In this document: piece by piece, positions 25,066 through 50,019 of the stretch | Position numbering within the stretch: the first letter of the stretch is position 1 | Layout of the letters: each line of letters begins with the position of its first letter | NCBI GenBank assembly: GCA_963667255.1 | Contig: OY762940.1 | Coordinates: 640,001 to 704,000 of the forward strand | Source of the DNA: Candidatus Cloacimonadota bacterium | GTDB taxonomy: Bacteria > Cloacimonadota > Cloacimonadia > G963667145 | Length of the DNA stretch: 64,000 nucleotides | Direction: 5' to 3' | Notes under the pieces: generated by a model | Database searches by the model: none | The model's input: the letters and a program-made list of their open reading frames with translations, nothing else | What the model was told of the DNA's origin: nothing | Position numbers and translations under genes: made by a program

Positions 25066-25140
25066 GCGGAAGTAGCTCAGTGGTAGAGCCTCACGTTGCC
25101 AACGTGATTGTCGCGAGTTCAAATCTCGTCTTCCGCTCCA
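25066..25140 (+). tRNA. tRNA-Gly(GCC)
   Basis: Cloverleaf; TCACG-TTGCCAA-CGTGA anticodon arm; GTTCAAAT T-loop; CCA end. Confidence 0.97.
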
Positions 25141-25147
25141 TTTTTTT

Positions 25148-25221
25148 GGCGACATCGCCAAGTGGTAAGGCAAGGGTCTGCAAAATCCTCATCCCCAGTT
25201 CGAATCTGGGTGTCGCCTCCA
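25148..25221 (+). tRNA. tRNA-Cys(GCA)
   Basis: GGCGACA/TGTCGCC acceptor stem; CTGCAAA anticodon loop; CCA end. Confidence 0.97.
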
Positions 25222-25234
25222 GTTTCAATTACTT

Positions 25235-25321
25235 GCCGGAGTGGTGGAATTGGTAGACACAAGGGACTTAAAATCCCTCGGGCTTTAGTCCGTGCCGGTT
25301 CAAGTCCGGCCTCTGGTACCA
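25235..25321 (+). tRNA. tRNA-Leu(TAA)
   Basis: AGGGA-CTTAAAA-TCCCT anticodon arm; long variable arm; CCA end. Confidence 0.97.
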
Positions 25322-27262: not shown

Positions 27263-28924
27263 TTACACAAAGCCAACTTTAGTTGCCGTGTTACTTAAAG
27301 TTTCATCAGTACAAAAGCCCATCAATTTTGAAAATGAAACTTTCTCATTATAAATTATTTCATGGATTTCATTTTTGCGGAAAATATTATCAATTTGGCC
27401 ACTCGAGAAATCAAATTTTTCTGCCAATAAATCACAATTCTGTTGAGTTAAAAAAGGCAATTTTAGTTTCCAAATTTTTGATCTAACATCAATATTAGGC
27501 TTTTGGAATTTGATTTTAAATAAAAATCTTCTTTCAAAAGCAGAATCGAGATTATTTGATAGATTTGTAGTTGCTATCAAAATTCCTTCAAAATTTTCTA
27601 ACTCTTCCAGAAGAATATTTTGTATCGCATTTTGAGTTTGACCAGTACTGGAAATGTTGATGTCTATTCTTTTAGAAATTATAGCGTCAGCTTCATTAAA
27701 AAATAGAATAGGTACCTTAGAGCAATCTTTTGAATAAAAATTATAATCAGTAAAAATTTGTTTTACTATTTTTTCACTTTCTCCAAACCACATTGATTTT
27801 GATTGGCTTAAATCTACATGAATTATCTCTCTTTTGGTTTCTCTAGCTATCTGTTTCACTATTTCTGTTTTGCCAGTGCCAGGTGCTCCATATAGCAGAA
27901 CAACAATTCCTTTTGGCAAATTTTTCTCTGTTAAACGTTTTTGGGTACTTTTGAATTTTCTTTCTTTCAATAAATTTTTTAATAGGTAAAGTTGTTCCAT
28001 CTCTGTGTTGCTAAAAATTAATTTTCTTGAGGGTATTTTATCAGAGAAAATTATGTTTTTTTCATTTTTTTTATTAATGGTTATATTGATTCCACATTCT
28101 TTAAGTAAATTTAGAGAAAAATCTGTGAGAGCAACTTGTGTATCTTGCACAAATCTTGCTTTTACAATTTCGATTAAATTTTGTTCTATAAGAACATTTT
28201 CCCCAGAGCTAATTTTTTGTAAAATTTCCACCACTTTTACAGTTTTATCATAGATTATATCTATAACTCTTCTAATTTCAAAGCTTTTAGTTCCTCGCAT
28301 TGTATTCCAAATTAAATGGACATATATGTAAAAATTTTCAACATCTAATTTTAAAGAATTTATCTTTTTTAATAGAGGAAAGTGCTTGTTCGCTTCTCTT
28401 ATCTCTTCAACAGTTTCAAAAAATTCTTCGGTTGTAATATTATCATCATCGCGATTATATAATGCTTGTGAGAAGCTCGACAAAACATCATAAATATTAG
28501 AAATCTCATTTTCTTTTATTTGGGGAATAGGCTTATTCTGGATAATTGCTCTAGATATTTTGCTATTTACTCTATATAAATGTTTGCATATTCTACCTTT
28601 TACTACAGCATTCCAGAAAGGTCTTAGTAAAATACCAGAGCGAATTAGATTTAAAATTTCTTCTTGAAACTTAAAGATTTTTACTGTGCTACAACAAAAA
28701 TGGTCGGCTAACTCCTTATAAGTTGGAGATTCTTCTTGAGATTCAAAAGCAAAGATAAGAGAAATAAAAAAAGCTTGTATTTTATTAGTTTTGAATTGTT
28801 TTGCAAGGTAGGTTAATTCAGGGTCTATCTTTGTAAAAAAAGTTTCCTCTAACTTAGAATCATTAGATTCTTCATAAACTTTTTCTATGGTTTCTATAAT
28901 TATGAATTTACCTTTTTTTGTCAT
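27263..28924 (-). CDS. AAA+ ATPase with large N-terminal domain
   Basis: GAPGTGKT Walker A; ILFFNEAD variant Walker B; ATTN; LDSAFERRF arginine finger. Confidence 0.88.
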   Translation of the reverse strand: MTKKGKFIIIETIEKVYEESNDSKLEETFFTKIDPELTYLAKQFKTNKIQAFFISLIFAFESQEESPTYKELADHFCCSTVKIFKFQEEILNLIRSGILLRPFWNAVVKGRICKHLYRVNSKISRAIIQNKPIPQIKENEISNIYDVLSSFSQALYNRDDDNITTEEFFETVEEIREANKHFPLLKKINSLKLDVENFYIYVHLIWNTMRGTKSFEIRRVIDIIYDKTVKVVEILQKISSGENVLIEQNLIEIVKARFVQDTQVALTDFSLNLLKECGINITINKKNEKNIIFSDKIPSRKLIFSNTEMEQLYLLKNLLKERKFKSTQKRLTEKNLPKGIVVLLYGAPGTGKTEIVKQIARETKREIIHVDLSQSKSMWFGESEKIVKQIFTDYNFYSKDCSKVPILFFNEADAIISKRIDINISSTGQTQNAIQNILLEELENFEGILIATTNLSNNLDSAFERRFLFKIKFQKPNIDVRSKIWKLKLPFLTQQNCDLLAEKFDFSSGQIDNIFRKNEIHEIIYNEKVSFSKLMGFCTDETLSNTATKVGFV

Positions 28925-28956
28925 ATAATGAACTCCTTTATTTTATTATGAAAATG

Positions 28957-29313
28957 CTATTTTTCTTTTATTTTTTCGAGACAATATTTGCAGTCCTCCT
29001 CAGAAATTTTCCCTTGATCTTTGAATGATGTAAGAATTGGCATTGCAAAGTCGTTGGGTAAAGTATGCCAAGTTGGATATCCTCTAGAGTTTGGATCTCC
29101 GATTTTTGACCAAAACCAACGTGTTGCCAACCTGTGGCTTCCTTCCCACAACAATAGAGCCAATGCCCATCTATTTTTTTCATCTATATAAATTATTTTT
29201 TTGACAGATGAAATTTTTTGTCTGGGGAAATTAATCAGTTTAGCATTTTCTTCTGTAACTTTAATCCACCCATCTTCGTCTAATTCAAAACCGTATTTTT
29301 TAAGATCTGCCAT
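28957..29313 (-). CDS. Hypothetical protein
   Basis: AGGAG RBS; W..RW...G.P.SRG.PTW motif. Confidence 0.75.
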   Translation of the reverse strand: MADLKKYGFELDEDGWIKVTEENAKLINFPRQKISSVKKIIYIDEKNRWALALLLWEGSHRLATRWFWSKIGDPNSRGYPTWHTLPNDFAMPILTSFKDQGKISEEDCKYCLEKIKEK

Positions 29314-29328
29314 GGCTTATCTCCTTTT

Positions 29329-30012
29329 TTAGTGTTTTTTCCACATTTCACAAATATTTTTTATTGCTTCTAAATATTGATTATAATTTGGTATAGAAGG
29401 ATGCTTTATAGAGTGAATAATGGATTTATTCAAATTGGTACTCTGTTTATATTTGAGAATATTATCACCACTCATTGCATTGAAACTATTACATCCTGCC
29501 TTTCCGCCTATAATAATTATGTCAGCTTCTAAAGCCTGAATTTCAGCATATATTTTCTTTCCGAGACAACTTTTCCCACTATCAATAATTGCAGTATAAT
29601 TTTCTCTTTTTGTTGAATTAGAAGTTGGACGTATATTATAATAAGTGATTTTGTTCAAAGTATCATTTTCTATACTCTTAATATTGTTGTAAGCCTCTTT
29701 CAAATCTTTTCTTGTAGGTTCTTTTCCTTTTTCTAAGCAATCCAATACTACTTTAGCAAAAGCTAAAGAGTATCTTACGGTTCTTGTTCTTGTGTTGCCT
29801 TTATCATTTAGCCAATCGCAGAGAGTCTTTTTACCAACATCAAAAATCTTACATTTTTCATATCCGTAAGGCTCTTCATTGATAATTAAAACTTTAATTT
29901 CTTGCTCCCAAAACAAATTTGAGATAGGACTATAAAACATATGATGCTCAATATGTCGTTGATCAATAAACTTTTTTGTTTCTTTTCTTGCATTTTTAAA
30001 AATTTCCTCCAT
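29329..30012 (-). CDS. Uracil-DNA-glycosylase-fold-like hypothetical protein
   Basis: GGGAGG RBS before ATG 30012; LIINEEPY, YYNI, ADIIIIGG, C-terminal HPS motif. Confidence 0.55.
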   Translation of the reverse strand: MEEIFKNARKETKKFIDQRHIEHHMFYSPISNLFWEQEIKVLIINEEPYGYEKCKIFDVGKKTLCDWLNDKGNTRTRTVRYSLAFAKVVLDCLEKGKEPTRKDLKEAYNNIKSIENDTLNKITYYNIRPTSNSTKRENYTAIIDSGKSCLGKKIYAEIQALEADIIIIGGKAGCNSFNAMSGDNILKYKQSTNLNKSIIHSIKHPSIPNYNQYLEAIKNICEMWKKH

Positions 30013-30174
30013 TAGTTCCTCCCATATTTTTATATTAAACCAGAGAAAGAATTCGGAGAAAATTGTCAACATAAATGATAATCTTTATTATAACTGACGT
30101 CAGCATAATAAAACTCTTATTTTTTTAGTTTTATTAGAAGGGTCGTTTACTATAAAAACAATAGAATAAGTTAC

Positions 30175-36969: not shown

Positions 36970-38955
36970 ATGCGGACGAAGAAATTATTTTTGTTCATAC
37001 TTACCTTTGCATTCAGTTTGTTGAGTGCACAGCTTCCTTTGGGTCAAAGCGAAAGCGAGCCTCTAAGCGTTGTTATGTATGCAGACAGAATATCAAGAAA
37101 CTATGAGGTGAGACTTTCTTCTGCTCTTTCTTCTTATTGTGAAAGAGGAACTTATGAGGTTGATGTTACTGTCAATCTGAAACCGAGACAAGGTGCATCT
37201 TCTTATCGTTCTTTTCAGAGTTCTTCGGATTTTGGTATGGATGATGGGATTATCATGCCCGGGACAGATGGGAGGTTCCTTAACGAATTTGTAGACAACC
37301 CTGAAGGAGTGCAGAGTGTTGTTGCTGCTCCAGTTCTTCCTGCTGTAACAACTAACACTTATTCTTCCAGCAATTTAACTGATTATGATGTTGAGAATGT
37401 TATTATAAATGTAATGCTTGATGCTTCTGCTTATTCTCCGGAGGATGTTTCCTTTATTGAGGAATTGGTAAGAATGAAATCGGGAGTAGATGCGTATCGT
37501 GGAGATGTGGTTAATGTTTCTTTGGTTAAGTTTACCAATCAAAAGCAGAAGATGATAGAAGAAGCACAAAAACTTGAGGAAGAAAAGAAGAAAAAAGAAG
37601 AGGAAGAAAAAAAGGCTGCTGAAGAAGAAGAAAGACGGAAAAGACAAGAGGAGTTAGATAAAGCTAACCAAGTTCAACCTGAACCTGAAAAGGAAGATAA
37701 TTTCCTTACTTACCTTATAGTTGGGTTAGTTGGGTTGCTATTATTGATTGGATTATTCCTTGCATTTTTCTTTATGTCCAAAAAACAGTCCGCCATGAAT
37801 GCCAACCTAGTGCAACCGAAAGTTAACTTCCCTCGATATGACGAGCAATTCGATAGCCTTATGCAAGAGGTTAGGGATCTTAGGAATGTCAATAGAACTT
37901 CTGATCCTGCGAGAATGGAAATTGCCGAGTACAAGAAACTCCGTTCTTTTGCTATTAATAAGTTCTTAGCGGAAGCAAAAAATGTGGGGATAGTATTGCA
38001 AGGTTGGGTAGATAGTGGTGGAGATGAAGGCGTTGATAAGGCTTCTAAATTGATTAAGGCGATAGATGAAAACCTGTTAGAGATTTTGGAAGAAAAAGTT
38101 TCTCACGAAGATTTCAAGTTGTTGTCCTGGAATGTTCGCAACATGGAAGAACTTGATACGAAAACTAAGCTGGAAGCGTTGCAAAATTTTAAAAATGCTT
38201 GGAGTTCTCTGACTGTTACTGAGGATAGTGAAGGTGATTCTGGAATGTTTGGTTTCTTGAATTCTATGTCTGTGGAGCAAATCAGACAAGCACTCAAGGG
38301 AGAAGCTGATGGTGTCCAAGCTCTTGTTATTACGCAAGTGTCAGCGGATAAGGCTTCGGAGATACTTGCTTCTTACACTTCTGAGCAACGCTCCTCTATT
38401 ATGGCAAATATGGGTAAACTTGGCAAGATACCTACTTCTGTTTACAAAGAGGTTTCCAGTCGTTTGGCAAAAGAGGCTCTCAATATGCGTGGTATGGAGT
38501 ATGTTTCTTCCGATGGAGCCGGCAAGATGTTGGAGATTTTGGAAACTCTTTCTATTGGAGAGCAAAAAGAGTTCATTGATGAGATTACTAAAGCTGATAT
38601 AAATGTTGCTGAGAAGGTGTTGAAGTTCTTTATCGCTTTTGATGATTTGGCTGATTTGGAAGAAAATATTTTGGTTAAGGCTATCCAAAAAATGGATAGA
38701 GATTTGTTGTCATCAGCTTTGGTTGGTGTCGATGAGATTAAAACTAACAATCTTCTTTCCAATATTCCCGAGCGGATGAGAGAAATCATCAAGTCTGAAC
38801 TTAGAATAAACGAAAATAAACTCAAACCTGACGATGTAGAAAAAGCTAGAATGAAAATGATGTCTATAGTCAAGAAAGAGATTAGAGATGCTGGTGGACG
38901 AAAGATTGGCGATAATGCACAAGCTGAAGAAAAAGGGATGAGCGATGAGTATTAG
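36970..38955 (+). CDS. FliF C-terminal ring domain-FliG fusion protein
   Basis: Signal peptide; FliF_C-like IEELV...G.D..RGDVVNV...F; one TM; FliF C-tail-like VGIVLQGWV; then FliG N/M/C-like domains (FIAFDDL, IPERMREIIKSEL). Confidence 0.8.
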   Translation: MRTKKLFLFILTFAFSLLSAQLPLGQSESEPLSVVMYADRISRNYEVRLSSALSSYCERGTYEVDVTVNLKPRQGASSYRSFQSSSDFGMDDGIIMPGTDGRFLNEFVDNPEGVQSVVAAPVLPAVTTNTYSSSNLTDYDVENVIINVMLDASAYSPEDVSFIEELVRMKSGVDAYRGDVVNVSLVKFTNQKQKMIEEAQKLEEEKKKKEEEEKKAAEEEERRKRQEELDKANQVQPEPEKEDNFLTYLIVGLVGLLLLIGLFLAFFFMSKKQSAMNANLVQPKVNFPRYDEQFDSLMQEVRDLRNVNRTSDPARMEIAEYKKLRSFAINKFLAEAKNVGIVLQGWVDSGGDEGVDKASKLIKAIDENLLEILEEKVSHEDFKLLSWNVRNMEELDTKTKLEALQNFKNAWSSLTVTEDSEGDSGMFGFLNSMSVEQIRQALKGEADGVQALVITQVSADKASEILASYTSEQRSSIMANMGKLGKIPTSVYKEVSSRLAKEALNMRGMEYVSSDGAGKMLEILETLSIGEQKEFIDEITKADINVAEKVLKFFIAFDDLADLEENILVKAIQKMDRDLLSSALVGVDEIKTNNLLSNIPERMREIIKSELRINENKLKPDDVEKARMKMMSIVKKEIRDAGGRKIGDNAQAEEKGMSDEY

Positions 38956-40090
38956 AAAGTTTATATTAGCTCTTTTTTTTGCGGTTTTTAGTTCTGCTCT
39001 TTTTGCTCAGTTTGAGTATAATGAGTTTTCTAATATGAGTGCTATTGGAACTACTCCCAGGAGTGACAGGTCGGAGGTTCGTAATATTTCTCGGATTATG
39101 ATGAGGGTAAAGGAGTCCGTGCTCAATTTTCCACTGGGCGTTAGAAGAGTGGCAGTTTATAGGATTAGAGCGGATAGAGATGCTATTTCTGTAGGAATGG
39201 TTAGATTTGTTAAATCAAAGTTAGAGCAAGTCCTTTTGGATAATGAATTGATAGAACTTGTAGTCGTCCCTGAATTTAACTTGGCGAGAGTTAAAATAAC
39301 TGACACATCTTTTAGCTATGTAAACTCTGCTAGATCGTTTGCAGAGCTTAGGTCTTTGGGCGAGAGATACGAGATAGATGCCTTTATCGAGGGTGAATGT
39401 ACTCGTAGTGCTTATGGGGACATTTTGCTTTCTTTGAAAATGGTTAGCAATAAGACTGGTGAGATTATTTGGTCTAAGGCGTTTATAGAAGGTCCTAACA
39501 ACGACCGTGACATTGAGATTCCGAAACAATATGCTATGAATTTTGATGTTGGTTTCTTTACTGTTAATCAGTATTATGGTGGTGTTTCTCTTTTTGGTAC
39601 AGACAATATGGGGGGCAAATCTACCAATACTGTGGTCATGACAGACTATCGTATCGGAGTAACTCGTAAGCAAATCTCCAATTTCAGCTTTGCTCCAGTG
39701 ATGATGACACTTTCTGGAGGATTGGCTATAGTTAATTGTCAGATAACGATGAACAACATAGATGGTTTTACCAAACTTGCTACTCCCTTCTTAGGTTATG
39801 GTTCAGGAGGAGTTTTAGCGAAGTATTTTAAAAAAGAAAGCAAAACTAAAACTTTGAAAGAGAATTACTGGTTTAAACCGTATATGAAAGGATATTTTTA
39901 TGTTCCGATTAACTATTCGGGAAGTTTTATGTCTTTGATGATAGGAGCTAATTCTGATGTTAGTGAGGATATAGAGGTTGGTGGTGGTCTTGGAGTCATG
40001 CCTTTTGGGAGAAAATTGACTAAAAATAGTACTAATTATATAGAGTTTGGAGTTATGAAATATGAGATTAACATTAGTTATAATTTCTAG
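38945..40090 (+). CDS. Exported FlgO/CsgG-like protein with probable C-terminal outer-membrane beta-barrel
   Basis: Signal peptide; LGERYEIDAFIEG...LKMVSNKTGEIIWS; alternating beta strands ending YEINISYNF. Confidence 0.6.
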   Translation: MSIRKFILALFFAVFSSALFAQFEYNEFSNMSAIGTTPRSDRSEVRNISRIMMRVKESVLNFPLGVRRVAVYRIRADRDAISVGMVRFVKSKLEQVLLDNELIELVVVPEFNLARVKITDTSFSYVNSARSFAELRSLGERYEIDAFIEGECTRSAYGDILLSLKMVSNKTGEIIWSKAFIEGPNNDRDIEIPKQYAMNFDVGFFTVNQYYGGVSLFGTDNMGGKSTNTVVMTDYRIGVTRKQISNFSFAPVMMTLSGGLAIVNCQITMNNIDGFTKLATPFLGYGSGGVLAKYFKKESKTKTLKENYWFKPYMKGYFYVPINYSGSFMSLMIGANSDVSEDIEVGGGLGVMPFGRKLTKNSTNYIEFGVMKYEINISYNF

Positions 40091-40745
40091 TATTTTTCTA
40101 CTTTCCGGTTGTTCTTTGTGGAATAAATATTTTGCAAAAACGGGAGTCACCGAGACGAGTAAAATTTCGGAGAAAGCTGCTGTGAATGCGACTTCTGGTT
40201 TGGGTAGTGCCGATATTGATAGAGGTCTTGGTGGAATAGGAGAGACAAAGCAGGAGACGACTATAATACAGCAAAATCCTATTAGACCGGGGAAGAATGA
40301 AATTCTCATAAAATACAGAAATAAGTCTTCGGAAGTTATTTTGAGTCTTGACCCGAGGGATAATAATGTGCAAATTGATGTTTCCAAAGCTCAATCTGCC
40401 GGAGATATGTTTTCCGAGAGTTCTATTCCTTTGAACTCTTCAGGAGATATGTCAGGTCGGTCTTCTGGGGGAGCACAAGGCAGTCCAGATGGTTCTGGTG
40501 ATAATGAAAAAGATATGTTAGCTAGAGCTCAAAGCAGTTTTTATAATGGTGATTATCAAAAATCTTTGCAACAAGTGAATAGTTCTATAAATACTAAACC
40601 CAATGCAGAGGCTTATGCCTTGAAAGGCAGTATTTACTACATGCTTGGCAATTTAGCATTGGCAAGAAAAAATTGGACTAACTCTCTGCGATTGGACAGC
40701 AATATCCAAGGTGTGAGACAAATGCTGAACATTATAGGAAATTAA
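40062..40745 (+). CDS. Lipoprotein with C-terminal TPR domain
   Basis: Lipobox LLSGC; AQSSFYNGDY...AEAYALKGSIYYMLG...W. Confidence 0.8.
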   Translation: MRLTLVIISSIFLLSGCSLWNKYFAKTGVTETSKISEKAAVNATSGLGSADIDRGLGGIGETKQETTIIQQNPIRPGKNEILIKYRNKSSEVILSLDPRDNNVQIDVSKAQSAGDMFSESSIPLNSSGDMSGRSSGGAQGSPDGSGDNEKDMLARAQSSFYNGDYQKSLQQVNSSINTKPNAEAYALKGSIYYMLGNLALARKNWTNSLRLDSNIQGVRQMLNIIGN

Positions 40746-40746
40746 G

Positions 40747-41553
40747 ATGGTTGGTTCTTTCAGTTCATTTTTGGCGTTTATTATCACATGGGTAATAGTA
40801 ATATTTTCTATTCTTGTAGCTACTTCCAATTGGCAGGTTTTTGTTAGCACTGCCAGCTTGCTGATTGTTATTGGTGGTACTATTGCCAGTGAGTTTATCG
40901 GGAGAGGGCTCAAAGAGACATTGGGAGCTCTTCTTTTTACTTTAAAATCTTTGTTCAAGCAGCCTATGGTAAGCAAGCATTTTGCTGCGGAAATTGATAG
41001 GATTAAAGGTTGGGCTGACAAAGTGCAGAGTGGAGGTAAGAAAGCTTATGATGAGATTTATTCTGAGGTTGCTGATCCATTCGAAAAATATGTTTTTTCT
41101 ATATTATCTACCGGTTATTCTGCAGATGAGTCGAGAGATTTTATCGCCAACGAAATCCAAAGAGAGTACCAAATTAGTGAGAGAAGGTCTCAGATTTTAA
41201 CTAATCTCGGTGGGAGTGCACCCGCTTTTGGTATGTTGGGAACTTTGTTGGGATTGGTAATTTTGCTCAGTCAACTTGATGACCCGTCCAAAATCGGTCC
41301 TGCTATGGCTGTTGCTCTCATTACTACTTTTTATGGATTGCTTTTGGCGAGATTGTTTTTTATTCCCGCTGCAAACAAATCTTATTCTACTGCTGAGGCG
41401 ATTTTGTTTAAGAAAAGAATGTTAATGGAAGGAGCATGTCTAATTATGCAGGATAAGTCCTCTTTCTACATTGAAGATTTTTTGCGTTCTTTTGTCGAGA
41501 AAGGGAAGTCAGATACTGTTGATGAAGATATAATTAGCGATAGTAATATTTAG
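40747..41553 (+). CDS. motA: MotA/PomA-family stator subunit
   Basis: SLLIVIGGT; APAFGMLGTLLGLV; DPSKIGPAMAVALITTFYG. Confidence 0.9.
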   Translation: MVGSFSSFLAFIITWVIVIFSILVATSNWQVFVSTASLLIVIGGTIASEFIGRGLKETLGALLFTLKSLFKQPMVSKHFAAEIDRIKGWADKVQSGGKKAYDEIYSEVADPFEKYVFSILSTGYSADESRDFIANEIQREYQISERRSQILTNLGGSAPAFGMLGTLLGLVILLSQLDDPSKIGPAMAVALITTFYGLLLARLFFIPAANKSYSTAEAILFKKRMLMEGACLIMQDKSSFYIEDFLRSFVEKGKSDTVDEDIISDSNI

Positions 41554-41561
41554 ATATTTTC

Positions 41562-42218
41562 ATGGAATTTCAGAAAAAATCTCCTAAGCCGATTGACGAA
41601 TCGTGGATGACGACTTATTCCGATTTGGTGACTTTGTTGCTGTGTTTTTTTGTGCTTTTGGTGTCTATGTCAAGCACAAACATGGGTATGTGGCAAGAAT
41701 TTAAAGAGGGATATCGTGCTGAAATTGAGGCTGCTGAAGACGATTTTGCTACTCCATTATCTAGAATGAAAGCCGATTTGGATTCTATGTTGATAGAAGA
41801 GAGAATGGCAGGCATTGTTTCCATTCGCCTAAATCGTTCTTCTATTACCATCAATATTTTGTCCGATGCACTTTATCGCACGGGCGAGGCGGTAATTATC
41901 AAAGAAAATATTGGGATTTTAAACAAGATTTCCGAGTCTATTAAGTCCATTAATTACTACGAACCGAAAATTGACATTGAGGGGCACACTGACGATGCTC
42001 CTATCCATAATTCCAAATTTCCGTCTAACTGGGAATTGTCTGTTGGCAGAGCGTCTAATATTGTGAGATATTTCATTTCTCAGGGAATAACTCCCGAACA
42101 GATGAAAGCCGCCGGATACGCTTATATCAAGCCTTTAGCTCCAAATAGAGACCAGGAAGGCAAGCCGATAAAGGCAAATCGCGATTTAAACCGTCGTGTC
42201 GTTATCGACATCCATTAG
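41562..42218 (+). CDS. motB: MotB/PomB-family stator subunit with OmpA-like peptidoglycan-binding domain
   Basis: WMTTYSDLVTLLLCFFVLL; IEGHTDD; SNWELS..RA; NRRV. Confidence 0.92.
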   Translation: MEFQKKSPKPIDESWMTTYSDLVTLLLCFFVLLVSMSSTNMGMWQEFKEGYRAEIEAAEDDFATPLSRMKADLDSMLIEERMAGIVSIRLNRSSITINILSDALYRTGEAVIIKENIGILNKISESIKSINYYEPKIDIEGHTDDAPIHNSKFPSNWELSVGRASNIVRYFISQGITPEQMKAAGYAYIKPLAPNRDQEGKPIKANRDLNRRVVIDIH

Positions 42219-45732: not shown

Positions 45733-46497
45733 ATGAAAGGTTTGATGTTGGGTATAATTTTTAGTGTGGCATCGTGCTTATTTGCGGTGAGTGGACTGGA
45801 GGTGATGAAGATGGTGGACGAGCGAGATGACGGCAAGACGATGGTTTCCGAGAGCAAGATGGTGCTTACCAATAGGCAAGGCAAGCAGCGGATTCGTATG
45901 ACCAAAATGTTTAAGAAAGAGTATGGTCAGGACGAAAAATCTTTGTTTGTTTTTTTGGAGCCTGCCGATGTGGAAGGAACGGCTTTTTTGAATTGGTCGT
46001 ATGACGATATCAGCAAGGACGACGAGAAATGGCTTTATATGCCGGCTTTGCACAGAGTGAGACGGATTGCCTCATCTAACACCGGCGACTATTTTATGGG
46101 GACCGATTTTACTTACGACGATATGGGGCAGAGAGAGCCGGAAGAGGATACTCATGAGCTTTTGCGGGAAGAGACTCTTGAAGGTTTGGATTGCTGGGTG
46201 GTGGAGTCCAAGCCCAAAGAGGACGATTATCAGTATTCCAAAGTTGTCAGGTGGATTAGCAAGGAGTATCTTTTGCCGATAAAAGCGGAGTTTTACGACA
46301 AACGGGGAAGATATCTGAAGAAGATGACGGTTAGTAATATTCAAAAAATTGATGGAATTTGGACGGCTTTTTCTCGCTTGATGGAGAATGAGCAAGAGCA
46401 ACACACGACACTTTTACAGATACAAAATGTGAAATACAATCAGGAAATTTCCGACAGACTTTTTAAGGTTGCCAATTTGAAAAGGGGTAAATTTTGA
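45733..46497 (+). CDS. Outer-membrane lipoprotein-sorting (LolA-like) protein
   Basis: F..PADV.GT.FL; W.Y.PAL.RVRRI; FMGTDFTYDD. Confidence 0.88.
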   Translation: MKGLMLGIIFSVASCLFAVSGLEVMKMVDERDDGKTMVSESKMVLTNRQGKQRIRMTKMFKKEYGQDEKSLFVFLEPADVEGTAFLNWSYDDISKDDEKWLYMPALHRVRRIASSNTGDYFMGTDFTYDDMGQREPEEDTHELLREETLEGLDCWVVESKPKEDDYQYSKVVRWISKEYLLPIKAEFYDKRGRYLKKMTVSNIQKIDGIWTAFSRLMENEQEQHTTLLQIQNVKYNQEISDRLFKVANLKRGKF

Positions 46498-47651
46498 GGA
46501 AGAAATCGCTACTAACTTTGCTTTTTGTGCTTGTGAGTGTTTCCGCTTTTTCGCTTGATTTTGGTGGAGAGGTCAGCTCGTATCACGGTTGGCAGAGCAG
46601 GGAGAGCAACAAGAGTTTGATAAATCTCAACCAAGCATTGCTGAAGATTAGCCAAGAGGGGAGCGGCAATCTATTTTTCACCAGCTTAAAGGCAAAGTCC
46701 AACAACAATACCGACCAAAATGAGTTGAGTTTGAAGGAAGCCTATTTCGATTATTTTGCTGATGAGTGGGATTTTCGCTTTGGGCGACAATTGATTATTT
46801 GGGGCAAAGCCGATGGTTTGCGGATTACCGACCTTATTTGTCCGATGGATTACAGCTTTGGTCCAGGTCAAGATTTGGAGGATATGCGGATTCCTGTCGA
46901 TGCTTTCAAATTTAGCTATTATCCCGAATATTTCGATTTGGATTTGATTTTTTTGCCGACGGTTAGCGGGAATGTTTACCCTTTGGAAGACTCTGTGTGG
47001 AATGTTTACGGCTACAAAAATGTGCAACACAATTTGCCGGATAAGACCTTGGAGTCCTCGCAATTTGCAGGGCGATTAGGCAAAAATTTTGGTGCTTTTG
47101 ATTTTGCTGTGAGCGGATTTTATTGTTGGCTACCCGTGAGCAGTTTTTCGCAAGGGACTTTGCTTATCGATTACAAGCGAAGCACTATTTTCGGGTTGGA
47201 GGCTTCCACTTCCGTAGATGCTTTCGTTTTCAGATTTGAGTCGGTATATTATCGGCGAAACTTTTTTGCCAATGGGTCTGTGGAAAAGCCTTGGGCAGAT
47301 GCTTTGTTGGGAGTTGACTGGTATCTTGGGAATAATTGGACTATTATCGCTCAACTTGAGGCGGATTTGGTTTGCGATTATTCCAACAAAGTTGTTAGAG
47401 ATGAGTCGGAGAGCATGGGAACATTGACTTTGAAGAAGAAGTTGTTTCGCGAAAAATTGGAGTTGTCTCTGCAAACCGTGAACAATTTTGCTTATCACGA
47501 CATAGTTTGCAAGTCCGCAGTCAATTACGATTTTGGCGGAGGTCTGCACATTTTGCTTGGCTACGATTATTATGACGGCAAAACTCAGGGAACTTTCGGC
47601 AGATTTTCCGACAACTCTATGTTTTGGTGCAAGGGCAAATACTCTTTTTGA
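46494..47651 (+). CDS. Outer-membrane beta-barrel protein (DUF1302-like)
   Basis: Signal peptide; LKEAYFD; GRQLIIWGKADG; C-terminal KYSF. Confidence 0.7.
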   Translation: MRKKSLLTLLFVLVSVSAFSLDFGGEVSSYHGWQSRESNKSLINLNQALLKISQEGSGNLFFTSLKAKSNNNTDQNELSLKEAYFDYFADEWDFRFGRQLIIWGKADGLRITDLICPMDYSFGPGQDLEDMRIPVDAFKFSYYPEYFDLDLIFLPTVSGNVYPLEDSVWNVYGYKNVQHNLPDKTLESSQFAGRLGKNFGAFDFAVSGFYCWLPVSSFSQGTLLIDYKRSTIFGLEASTSVDAFVFRFESVYYRRNFFANGSVEKPWADALLGVDWYLGNNWTIIAQLEADLVCDYSNKVVRDESESMGTLTLKKKLFREKLELSLQTVNNFAYHDIVCKSAVNYDFGGGLHILLGYDYYDGKTQGTFGRFSDNSMFWCKGKYSF

Positions 47652-47667
47652 GTGAGGGGAGAAAATA

Positions 47668-50019
47668 ATGATTAATTTGGAGAGAATAAATAACTGGTTT
47701 AATTCGTATGGTAAATGGCTTGTTAGGAATAGGTTATGGTATTTTTTGTTTTTTGTTTTGCTGTTGGCGGTGTCCATAATCGGTTTGCCAAAATTGCAAT
47801 CGTCGGCTGATGAGGACAATTGGTTTGGCAAGAAAGATAGAACGATTATCGATCAAAACAAGATGGAAGAGATATTTGGGAATACGGATATTGCCGCTGT
47901 GCATGTGAGTGTCAAAAATATTTTTACCAGGCAAAATCTGGAGTTGATAAGGAAGCTCGGGCAAGATTTGGAAGACAATGTTCCTTATGCTGACGATGTT
48001 TTTAGCATCACTTCGCTGGAGTATAGCCAAGGCAGTGAGTGGGGAATTGAGATAGAGGATTTGATTCCAGAGGATATTCCCGACGACCAAGAGGCTTTGG
48101 ACAAATTGCGAGAAAAAGCCATCTCCAAGGAGCTAATCAAAGGGCAGGTAATTAGTGAAGATTGCACGGAAGCTTGGATAATCTTGCGACTTCTCAGATA
48201 CAAGGACGGCGATGACGAAGCGACTTTGAAAATTGGGAAAAGATTTTTGGAGGTGGTCAATAAACCGCTTTATGCTCCTCTGTCTCCCAAAGCGACGGGT
48301 GTGCCTGTGATAATGTATGAGAAGACGAATTTTTTTAGCCACGAAACTCCGCGAGTGATGAAATTCTCTTTTTTGGTCGTTTTCTTGATTTTGCTCGTAT
48401 CTCTGCGGTCTGTGCGAGGGATTTTCATTCCCTTTTTGACTATCGCTTTCAGTTTGCTGATAGTTTTCGGATTGCAAGGGCATTTGGGCATCACGATAGA
48501 CCCCACGGTGGTAACGATGCCGATTTTTTTGGGACTTTCGGTTGCTGTCGGCTACAATATTCACATTTTCCATTTTTATCAAGATTATCGCAAAAAAACC
48601 GGAAAGGTAAAGGAAGCGGTTTACTACACTTTGCAAGAGAGCGGTTGGCCAATTTTGTTCACGGCACTCACCACCATTCTTGCCTTGTTTTCCTTCCTTT
48701 TCATCTCCTCTCCGCTTTTGCAATGGATTGGCTTGGCATCGGCTTCGCTTGTTTTCGTGAGCTTGCTTTTGGTCTTGAGTTTCACTCCGATTTTGCTCTC
48801 CTTTGGCAAAGATAAGGCGGTTGCTCCCAACAAGGTGCTTGCCAGAGGTGTAAGGCTAAATAAATGGCTTGCAGGGTTTAGCGACTGGATTTTCGGCAAT
48901 AGAAAGAAGATAATTTTCTTTTACATCTTAATAACCTTGATAGGTGCTTGCGGGTTTTTTATGTTTAGGATTTCTTTCAGTCCAGTGGATTCCATCGGGC
49001 TTAAAGTCCCTTATGTCAAGCGAGTAAATGCGATTGCTCACTCCCAGATAGGTGCACTTGCCTCTTACAATATCATCATAGAATTTCCCGAAAATGATGC
49101 GGTAAAAGAGCCTAAAAATATGAAGAAGCTCGATGAGTTGGTCAAGTTTATCGAGACGAAAACGGTTTTGACCAAACGGGTGAGTTCGATTGTCAAAATC
49201 ATTAAAGATATGAACAAGGTGCTTTTTGACAATAAAGATGCCGAATACAAAATTCCCGACACAAGGCAGGCGATTGCTCAGGAGCTTTTGCTTTACGAAA
49301 ATTCGGGAGGAACAGAGGCAACTCGCTGGATAGACTACGATTACAAAAGGTATCGTATTCAAGTGGAATTGCCTGAGATGGACACGAAAATTGCTGACCA
49401 AGACATCATCAAAATCAAGGAGAAAGCTCGGCAACTTTTCCCCGATGCCAAGGTAAACGAAGTGGGAACTTTGGCAAAGATGGTGGTTATGGCAGAGCGA
49501 GTGACTTATGGGCAATTGTTCTCTTTTTTCATCGCTTTGGTGATAGTCGCCATTACCCTGATGGTAGCTTTCGGTGGTGTGCGAGTGGGACTTGTGGGTA
49601 TGATTCCCAACATCACTCCGGCGATTTTGGCAGGTGGTGCTATGGGCTATTTGGACATTCCGCTGGATATGATTACCGTGACCATTATGCCCATGATTTT
49701 GGGTTTGGCGGTCGATGACACCATTCACTTTATCAATCATTACAAACTCTATTACAACGAATATGGCGATTACAAAAGGGCTTCCGCCAGATGTTTCACT
49801 TCCATAGGAGTGGCTCTGATTACCACTTCGGTGATTTTGATTTTGAATTATGCGGTCTATCTCTCCTCCACAGCCGCTATGCTCCAACATGTGGGACTAT
49901 TGGCGATAATCGGTATCGGCTCGGCACTTTTGGCAGATTTTTTCATCACTCCAATTTTAATCAGAATGCTCGAACCTTTTGGCAAACATATAGATAGCAA
50001 GGAAAAAAATGAGAGTTAA
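47668..50019 (+). CDS. MMPL/RND-family transporter
   Basis: Two TM bundles with large periplasmic loops; GLAVDDTIHF. Confidence 0.9.
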   Translation: MINLERINNWFNSYGKWLVRNRLWYFLFFVLLLAVSIIGLPKLQSSADEDNWFGKKDRTIIDQNKMEEIFGNTDIAAVHVSVKNIFTRQNLELIRKLGQDLEDNVPYADDVFSITSLEYSQGSEWGIEIEDLIPEDIPDDQEALDKLREKAISKELIKGQVISEDCTEAWIILRLLRYKDGDDEATLKIGKRFLEVVNKPLYAPLSPKATGVPVIMYEKTNFFSHETPRVMKFSFLVVFLILLVSLRSVRGIFIPFLTIAFSLLIVFGLQGHLGITIDPTVVTMPIFLGLSVAVGYNIHIFHFYQDYRKKTGKVKEAVYYTLQESGWPILFTALTTILALFSFLFISSPLLQWIGLASASLVFVSLLLVLSFTPILLSFGKDKAVAPNKVLARGVRLNKWLAGFSDWIFGNRKKIIFFYILITLIGACGFFMFRISFSPVDSIGLKVPYVKRVNAIAHSQIGALASYNIIIEFPENDAVKEPKNMKKLDELVKFIETKTVLTKRVSSIVKIIKDMNKVLFDNKDAEYKIPDTRQAIAQELLLYENSGGTEATRWIDYDYKRYRIQVELPEMDTKIADQDIIKIKEKARQLFPDAKVNEVGTLAKMVVMAERVTYGQLFSFFIALVIVAITLMVAFGGVRVGLVGMIPNITPAILAGGAMGYLDIPLDMITVTIMPMILGLAVDDTIHFINHYKLYYNEYGDYKRASARCFTSIGVALITTSVILILNYAVYLSSTAAMLQHVGLLAIIGIGSALLADFFITPILIRMLEPFGKHIDSKEKNES

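Follow-up and report, generated by a model that had tools for sequence, protein, structure and literature searches.

Our analysis of a 64,000-nucleotide stretch of a Candidatus Cloacimonadota genome (here, the window) depicts a five-gene operon whose products probably form a rotary machine without a flagellum, i.e., a FliF-FliG ring, likely turned one way by the operon's own MotA and MotB, that would pass force to an outer-membrane barrel protein and a TPR lipoprotein. The system is real, conserved across several phyla, and built from known parts; it is apparently undescribed, and its function is deduced here from sequence. All five genes are co-oriented (plus strand) and overlap or abut, and the genes on both flanks lie on the opposite strand. 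Promoter and terminator scans yielded chance-level counts (19 versus 15.5 and 5 versus 3.8, respectively), and an Rfam scan of the window returned only tRNAs. The sequencing runs listed as containing this DNA are three DNA runs of a single study, with no RNA run among them.

The first gene (36970..38955) encodes a 661-aa fused rotor. Hydropathy and a family-wide A-Q pair at residues 20-21 predict a Sec signal peptide over residues 1-20 (36970..37029), at the position where FliF carries its first transmembrane helix and RBM1/2; the YscJ_FliF profile (PF01514), which spans that helix, RBM1, and RBM2, matched neither the fused rotor nor the rest of the host genome at E<=0.1. The RBM3-like ring-building domain of FliF starts at residue 28 and extends to residue 189 (37051..37536). 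Its beta-collar insert is shorter and appears in the model as a low-confidence loop (residues 73-135, 37186..37374; pLDDT <50) that might fold only in the ring. Conserved within this loop are Pro97-Gly98 of the family motif LPGLP, both invariant in 52/52 sequences, and an xPGx motif occurs in 125 of 134 family members. Next come an E/K-rich periplasmic helix or linker, weakly conserved in the family (residues 190-243, 37537..37698), and a transmembrane helix equivalent to the second one of FliF (residues 249-267, 37714..37770; hydropathy 2.99), which is the only one beyond residue 45, i.e., past the signal region, in 125 of the 134 aligned fused rotors. The equivalent of the FliG-binding C-terminal helix of FliF (residues 323-349 with W346, 37936..38016) was recovered by hhalign with a probability of 83 and an E value of 8.4e-6, against controls of 1% or less. 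All three FliG domains complete the chain: a FliG_N-like domain some 26 residues shorter than the flagellar one (residues 352-421, 38023..38232), FliG_M (residues 425-507, 38242..38490), and FliG_C with the torque helix (residues 516-640, 38515..38889). The low pTM of the model (0.39) leaves the arrangement of these domains unpredicted. The original prediction had proposed this succession of signal peptide, RBM3, coiled coil, transmembrane helix, FliF tail, and FliG N/M/C from the letters alone, and Pfam, HH, Foldseek, and hhalign comparisons bear it out, including the match of the periplasmic part to FliF RBM3.

FliG_M and FliG_C exceed their Pfam cut-offs, the HH comparison with FliG reaches a probability of 99.8 across 303 columns, and the 13 best Foldseek matches are FliG; TIGR00207 (FliG) scores 81 bits, under its cut-off of 226.7. 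These results leave next to no room for a C-terminal half of the MgtE_N type with a superficial flagellar likeness, a reading prompted by a weak MgtE_N match (E 0.012) and by Atlas annotations of MgtE_N on a minority of related-cluster members. MgtE_N scores 16.5 bits against a cut-off of 25.9, the CBS and MgtE membrane domains are unmatched, and no MgtE entry figures among the 45 Foldseek matches listed. MgtE identity is thus ruled out in favor of FliG, as originally proposed. A separate weak FliG_M match in another genome (G022) was dropped because inspection pointed to an MgtE transporter.

Two sites of the FliG moiety have followed different paths. EHPQ, which belongs to the FliM-binding EHPQR motif according to the accessible text of PMC6680979, reads EADG in the host protein (38302-38313). 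The original prediction noted this loss in a single sequence, and it proved family-wide: EHPQ is absent in 134/134 fused rotors, of which 88% keep the Glu and two the His, versus 12/12 flagellar FliG proteins from the host's phylum in which it is invariant. These counts rest on an alignment of the window protein, its counterparts from four congeners, and 129 of the 150 listed representatives, the other 21 (137-487 aa) having been excluded as mostly fragments. Across the family, the torque helix keeps its charges only in part. The R281-equivalent, R602 (38773-38775), is R/K in 130/134 fused rotors, whereas position 609 or 610 is acidic in 88/134, position 619 is basic in 20/134, and the Lys of ALKG is present in 4/134. 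In flagellar numbering, the torque-helix charges are R281, D288/D289, R297, and K264. The host rotor itself has R602, E610 (preceded by S609), and K619, with no equivalent of D288 or K264. The E. coli rotor-stator pairs are R90/D288-D289 and E98/R281 in the available part of PMC12505986. The stator-facing helix is therefore partly conserved, with R602 as the sole near-universal torque charge. Retention of R/K in 130/134 sequences and loss of EHPQ in all 134 indicate that the stator-facing site has been kept and the switch-facing site has not.

The four partner genes, which the original prediction left unnamed, are the main evidence on the nature of the machine. The second gene (38945..40090), overlapping the rotor gene by 11 nt, encodes a predicted outer-membrane protein of 381 aa with a signal peptide, an LpoB/TolB_N/FlgT-like periplasmic domain (residues ~46-184), and a predicted 8-strand OmpA/OmpW-type barrel (residues 192-381) that ends in Phe. 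Its sequence is unmatched in Pfam, NCBIfam, and PDB, and its periplasmic domain matches the LpoB, PelC, and TolB_N folds. The third gene (40062..40745) specifies a predicted 227-aa TPR lipoprotein (Pfam TPR_2, 1.3e-6) whose lipobox Cys17 is invariant in 52/52 sequences. A predicted complex between its residues 72-227 and the rotor periplasmic domain (residues 30-195) scored 0.17 against a mark of 0.32, a value obtained without folded controls that weighs neither for nor against contact. The remaining genes encode the stator. The A subunit (268 aa, 40747..41553; Pfam MotA_ExbB) is of the MotA/PomA type, with PomA as the best NCBIfam match (under its cut-off) and Vibrio PomA as the best PDB match (4e-31). 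Its pore residues P159, T166, and T194 are invariant in 67/67 sequences, and T193 is found in 62/67. Alignment to PomA places Q94 at the R90-equivalent and D102 at the E98-equivalent; among MotA proteins of the same subtype, the former position is K/R in 41/56 and the latter acidic in 22/56. Changes at R90/E98 of MotA impair Salmonella motility, as stated in the accessible part of bioRxiv 2020.05.15.096610. The MotB-type B subunit (218 aa, 41562..42218; Pfam MotB_plug 8.8e-16, OmpA 7.4e-14) combines a transmembrane helix bearing Asp21, invariant in 66/66 sequences, with a plug and an OmpA-like wall-binding domain. Of the flagellar-type stator features, the MotB Asp, plug, and OmpA-like domain and the MotA pore Thr/Pro residues are present in the operon.

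This stator also bears on the alternative to which we grant a modest chance, a Ton/Tol-like envelope energizer that lacks sustained rotation. A static or ratcheting ring would switch the stator on and relay force to the LpoB/TolB_N-like domain for upkeep of the outer membrane or cell wall or for assembly or release of surface structures. The likeness of the barrel protein's periplasmic domain to LpoB, PelC, and TolB_N fits such a role, all the more so as the N-terminal Rossmann-fold domain of TolB adjoins the TolA-binding region (PMC12204202, available text), and so do the partly degenerate torque charges and the absent shaft gene. Yet the stator is flagellar, with PomA and MotB as best matches, and plug plus OmpA-like anchor is considered diagnostic of torque-generating stators in the accessible text of PMC12505986. 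The rotor moreover retains a whole FliG with its near-invariant torque Arg, and a second, shorter MotA_ExbB-family gene in the host genome may cover the Ton/Tol roles. None of the five operon genes encodes an ExbD/TolR-type B subunit or a TonB/TolA transducer, and none matches the Gld/Spr families.

The host genome, a single contig of 1.588 Mb that is 98.86% complete, lends weight to the prediction of a switchless rotor devoid of an export gate. Profiles for FlhA, FliP, FliM, FliMN_C, YscJ_FliF, rod, and flagellin each match 4 of 14 control genomes and found nothing in the host, so that the gate (FlhA, FliP), the switch (FliM, FliMN_C), and, by family profiles, the rod/hook and flagellin of a bacterial flagellum are missing. 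A rod-like shaft gene for crossing peptidoglycan was likewise not found. The sole receiver domain of the genome sits in a 248-aa frame, from which we infer that a stand-alone CheY is absent. Profiles for the usher barrel, chaperone, and pilins or filament, built from a distant lineage, matched only the shared TPR. A tblastn search queried with a flagellar FliG failed to recover even the fused gene and was therefore not used as evidence of absence.

Other features of this genome were recorded along the way. Three giant ORFs of ~11,000 aa each, outside the window (contig positions 377033-410773 on the minus strand and 491876-525046 and 526084-558837 on the plus strand), have lipoprotein-like N-termini and take up ~100 kb, or 6%, of the 1.59-Mb genome. 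They resemble surface adhesins and are possible cargo, though they have no link to the operon. Within the window, a low-GC block at 27263-30072 (29-34% versus ~40%), near a tRNA cluster at 25066-25318, carries an AAA ATPase and unknown ORFs and is probably an inserted island. Downstream of the operon, three genes at 45733-50019 specify, by inspection, a LolA-like-looking protein, an outer-membrane protein, and an RND/MMPL-like transporter; this set lies near the operon also in loci L054 and L055.

Word-based searches reached only 8-9 close relatives of the rotor, and a profile search was needed to chart the family. It gathered 303 clusters at E<=1e-10, of which 80 also pass E<=1e-30; most of the best 150 measure 560-730 aa. 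Of 93 loci, 56 show the full order rotor-barrel-TPR-motA-motB, six of these 56 from the host genus and the others from Fibrobacterota and Balneolaceae, with flanks unrelated between lineages; two further loci (L193, L194) hold the same five genes together in shuffled order. The rest of the 93 are explained by contig-end cuts, ORF-finder miscalls, the usher subtype described below, or lack of an adjacent motAB. This last group consists of near-identical metagenome loci (L137-L143) with rotor and barrel in 7/7, TPR in 6/7, and adjacent motAB in 0/7; one of them stops at a contig edge, and transposase-like genes lie downstream in some. Broad alignments gave no usable locus pattern and narrower ones were used, so the loci over-represent Fibrobacterota and Balneolaceae; Atlas clusters from Bdellovibrionota, Elusimicrobiota, and Pseudomonadota lie outside the locus comparison. 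Most Balneolaceae carry two fused rotors per genome, and the cultured Gracilimonas tropica DSM 19535 and Balneola sp. EhC07 have two paralogous operons each. Among 251 sampled genomes from the phylum of G. tropica, the barrel was strongly matched in 16 and the rotor matched in 35, which denotes a patchy distribution.

The operon is independent of flagella. FlhA was found in 23 of 42 carrier genomes and was not detected in the other 19, and FlhA-free carriers include the cultured G. tropica DSM 19535 and Balneola sp. EhC07. In the host phylum, where some relatives are flagellated, FlhA was found in 0/17 genomes that were picked as congeners or because their FliG_M match was fused or divergent (G166 being counted on its match alone), with 5/5 controls positive. 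These figures make it very improbable that the fused protein is an accessory or alternative flagellar rotor, such as a clutch or second motor, orphaned in the host. The 23 FlhA-positive carriers could suggest it, but all 13 of those retested own a separate, ordinary FliG of ~350 aa, and clustering and inspection of the 93 loci revealed no flagellar-looking recurrent neighbor families. Of the elements that would connect such a rotor with gate, rod, and switch, RBM1/2 and EHPQ are absent, and the collar appears to be. FlhA-free carriers and separate FliG proteins thus largely refute this option. One flagellated relative (G036) additionally harbors a 168-aa ORF of FliG_C/FliG_M-like pieces after its ordinary fliG (L007:2135-2638).

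Phylogeny and selection speak against a decaying remnant of the lineage's lost flagellum, a possibility brought up by the small genome (1.59 Mb) and the flagellated relatives in the phylum and one we regard as remoter still. A quick unrooted tree of 76 FliG M-C regions places 18 flagellar FliGs from three phyla on one side (branch support 99) and groups the host protein with fused rotors from Fibrobacterota and Balneolota (support 97), apart from the flagellar FliG of its own phylum; being unrooted, it entails no claim on evolutionary direction. Across five congeners, rotor pN is 0.09-0.18 versus a near-saturated pS of 0.72-0.78, and pN of the other four genes is likewise far under near-saturated pS. 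Reading frames are intact in six genomes of the genus. The operon genes are under purifying selection, and this, together with the tree position and the spread over 303 clusters, refutes the remnant hypothesis; two of the partner genes are, besides, non-flagellar.

Carriers fall into subtypes that differ in what surrounds the rotor and share an outer-membrane barrel and TPR in all three examined. The host type has the small barrel and the TPR lipoprotein. In the usher subtype of Balneolaceae, the second rotor copy is preceded by genes for three or four DUF4402-like pilins, for a PapD-like chaperone, and for a ~1000-aa usher-like protein with a C-terminal TPR, the usher being called by inspection and Pfam support being weak for most of these genes; usher, chaperone, and DUF4402-like pilins are absent from the window's operon. 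Usher-linked paralogues occur at L121, L127, L144-L148, L150, and L191, often with an extended MotB (with a SPOR domain in L121). A second usher-linked copy in genome G448 (L192:9860-13457), lacking an adjacent motAB and near a transposase-like gene, has a rotor gene that stops after the transmembrane helix (343 aa, no FliG) and is probably decayed.

The short subtype (460-490 aa), found beside motAB in 11 inspected genomes of the host phylum, usually neighbors a PorV/FadL-like barrel-TPR gene and one for a large Ig/FG-GAP protein, and 4/5 of the large proteins scanned have a CHU_C-like end or Ig repeats. It adjoins flagellar FliG in the quick tree and may have a separate origin. Short rotors (L040-L046, L048-L051) have little or no FliG_N, resembling a natural deletion fusion, and lie beside large proteins with Ig/PKD/FG-GAP domains. 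The barrel gene does not neighbor the rotor and motAB in L040 or in L043, which holds two tandem rotor-motA-motB-TPR sets. L041 and L045 run on into an AAA_22 ATPase and Wzc/Wza-like genes, and two MotB variants (L049:9579-9998, L050:1341-1877) have the OmpA-like wall-binding domain swapped for another short domain, LysM-like by eye in L049.

Recurrence of barrel and TPR in three otherwise different subtypes is our main reason for placing the output of the machine at the outer membrane. By analogy with FliF, FliG, and MotAB biology, RBM3 domains would build a periplasmic ring, the FliF tail would fold with FliG_N within one chain, FliG_M/FliG_C contacts across subunits would make a cytoplasmic gear, and wall-anchored stators would conduct ions and push the torque helix. 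With PomA as the best match, Na+ is somewhat favored as the coupling ion. According to the available part of bioRxiv 2020.05.15.096610, it is the rotor that does the switching, and the direction of rotation would be fixed given the lack of FliM, FliN, and CheY. More speculatively, the Pro-Gly loop, which stands where FliF has its rod-gripping beta-collar, could couple the ring to the TPR/barrel module, and the output might move or tension a barrel or adhesin exposed at the surface, be it for attachment or for movement over surfaces. A barrel of 8 strands would be too narrow for protein export, which argues against a secretion pore in the host subtype. Against a rotary reading count the degenerate torque charges, Q94 in MotA, the missing shaft gene, the filament, pilin, chaperone, and usher barrel that the profiles did not find in the host genome, the loci without motAB, and the short-type sets of L040 and L043 that have no barrel gene next to them.

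It seems rather improbable that these parts make up an ion-flux or mechanosensing device, in which the stator would open under rotor load or on envelope contact and so alter membrane potential or signaling, with no mechanical output, in surface sensing or Zorya-like defense. MotAB-like stators do serve phage defense (ZorAB) and other non-motile roles, as described in the accessible text of PMC12204202, and the host genome yielded no output filament. However, in 6/6 genomes of the genus the operon occupies the same site between housekeeping genes, and no effector or signaling gene recurs beside it across phyla in the 93 loci. Such a fixed site is unlike that of defense islands, which are mobile. 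A rotary machine acting on the outer membrane remains our preferred reading.

MotAB stators have known non-flagellar relatives, and the FliF/FliG rotor has, to our knowledge, so far been tied to flagella. A natural FliF-FliG fusion in Chlorobium, brought up by the original prediction, would, if real, lessen the novelty of the fusion and not that of the operon. Titles and abstract beginnings in the open literature, a scope outside which most subscription papers fall, contained no description of the operon, nor do the accessible parts of PMC12505986, PMC12204202, PMC6680979, PMC12199754, PMC3362086, and bioRxiv 2020.05.15.096610, although the supplements of the surveys could list such proteins. 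In a 2025 survey, 11% of the non-motile species had a rotor protein but no filament, and an alternative function was put forward as a possibility (PMC12199754, available text). The operon offers a concrete, testable case in which three genes would form the whole motor and two more its output. It is relevant to how little is needed for torque, to the contribution of FliM/FliN, and to the modular assembly of the flagellum, as well as to the unexplained surface behavior of Fibrobacterota, Balneolaceae, and small-genome anaerobes. A rotor that is made of one chain and turns in one direction would also lend itself well to reconstitution.

The closest known relative is the flagellar motor core (FliF MS-ring, FliG, and MotA5B2/PomAB), with which the system shares RBM3, a FliF C-tail beside FliG_N, FliG M/C, the torque-helix Arg, and the stator plug, Asp, and wall-binding domain. 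It differs in its one-chain rotor, with a signal peptide in place of TM1/RBM1/RBM2 and a Pro-Gly loop in place of the beta-collar; in the lack of EHPQ, FliM, FliN, CheY, export gate, rod, hook, and filament; and in its pairing with a small outer-membrane barrel and a TPR lipoprotein. It is therefore neither a flagellum, nor does it contain a full FliF or a switch-competent FliG. That such fusions can work was anticipated by the original prediction and agrees with laboratory constructs, namely, the Salmonella FliF-FliG deletion fusion and Vibrio FliFG (PDB 8z4d, a 945-aa fusion chain): fused FliF-FliG forms rings and, in Salmonella, a working motor (PMC6680979, accessible text). Laboratory fusions keep the N-terminal half of FliF and operate in a full flagellum with FliM/FliN, whereas the host fusion is natural, minimal, and flagellum-independent.

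Likenesses extend to other envelope motors. GldLM of type IX secretion and gliding in Bacteroidota is an ion-driven motor that moves outer-membrane components and adhesins without a flagellum, and the short-rotor subtype adjoins PorV-like barrels and CHU_C-bearing large proteins; in sequence, however, GldLM and its ring are not of the FliF/FliG/MotAB type. Tol-Pal and TonB-ExbBD also set a 5:2 motor to work on an outer-membrane target, and the operon's barrel protein has a TolB_N/LpoB-like domain, but the stator here is flagellar-type and a FliF/FliG ring replaces the TolA/TonB-like gene. Injectisomes, another repurposed flagellum-related machine with a FliF-related ring, retain the export gate and have no stator. 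The fused-rotor system, with rotor and stator kept and the gate absent, is their mirror image. It may well typify a multi-phylum class of five-gene rotary machines in which a self-contained FliF-FliG rotor with its own MotAB drives one of several outer-membrane outputs that can replace each other: a small barrel resembling an adhesin, a chaperone-usher pilus, or a large adhesin together with a PorV-like barrel. No known natural rotor-stator motor would be simpler, and the class could be a sister lineage or a precursor of the flagellar motor instead of a leftover from it.
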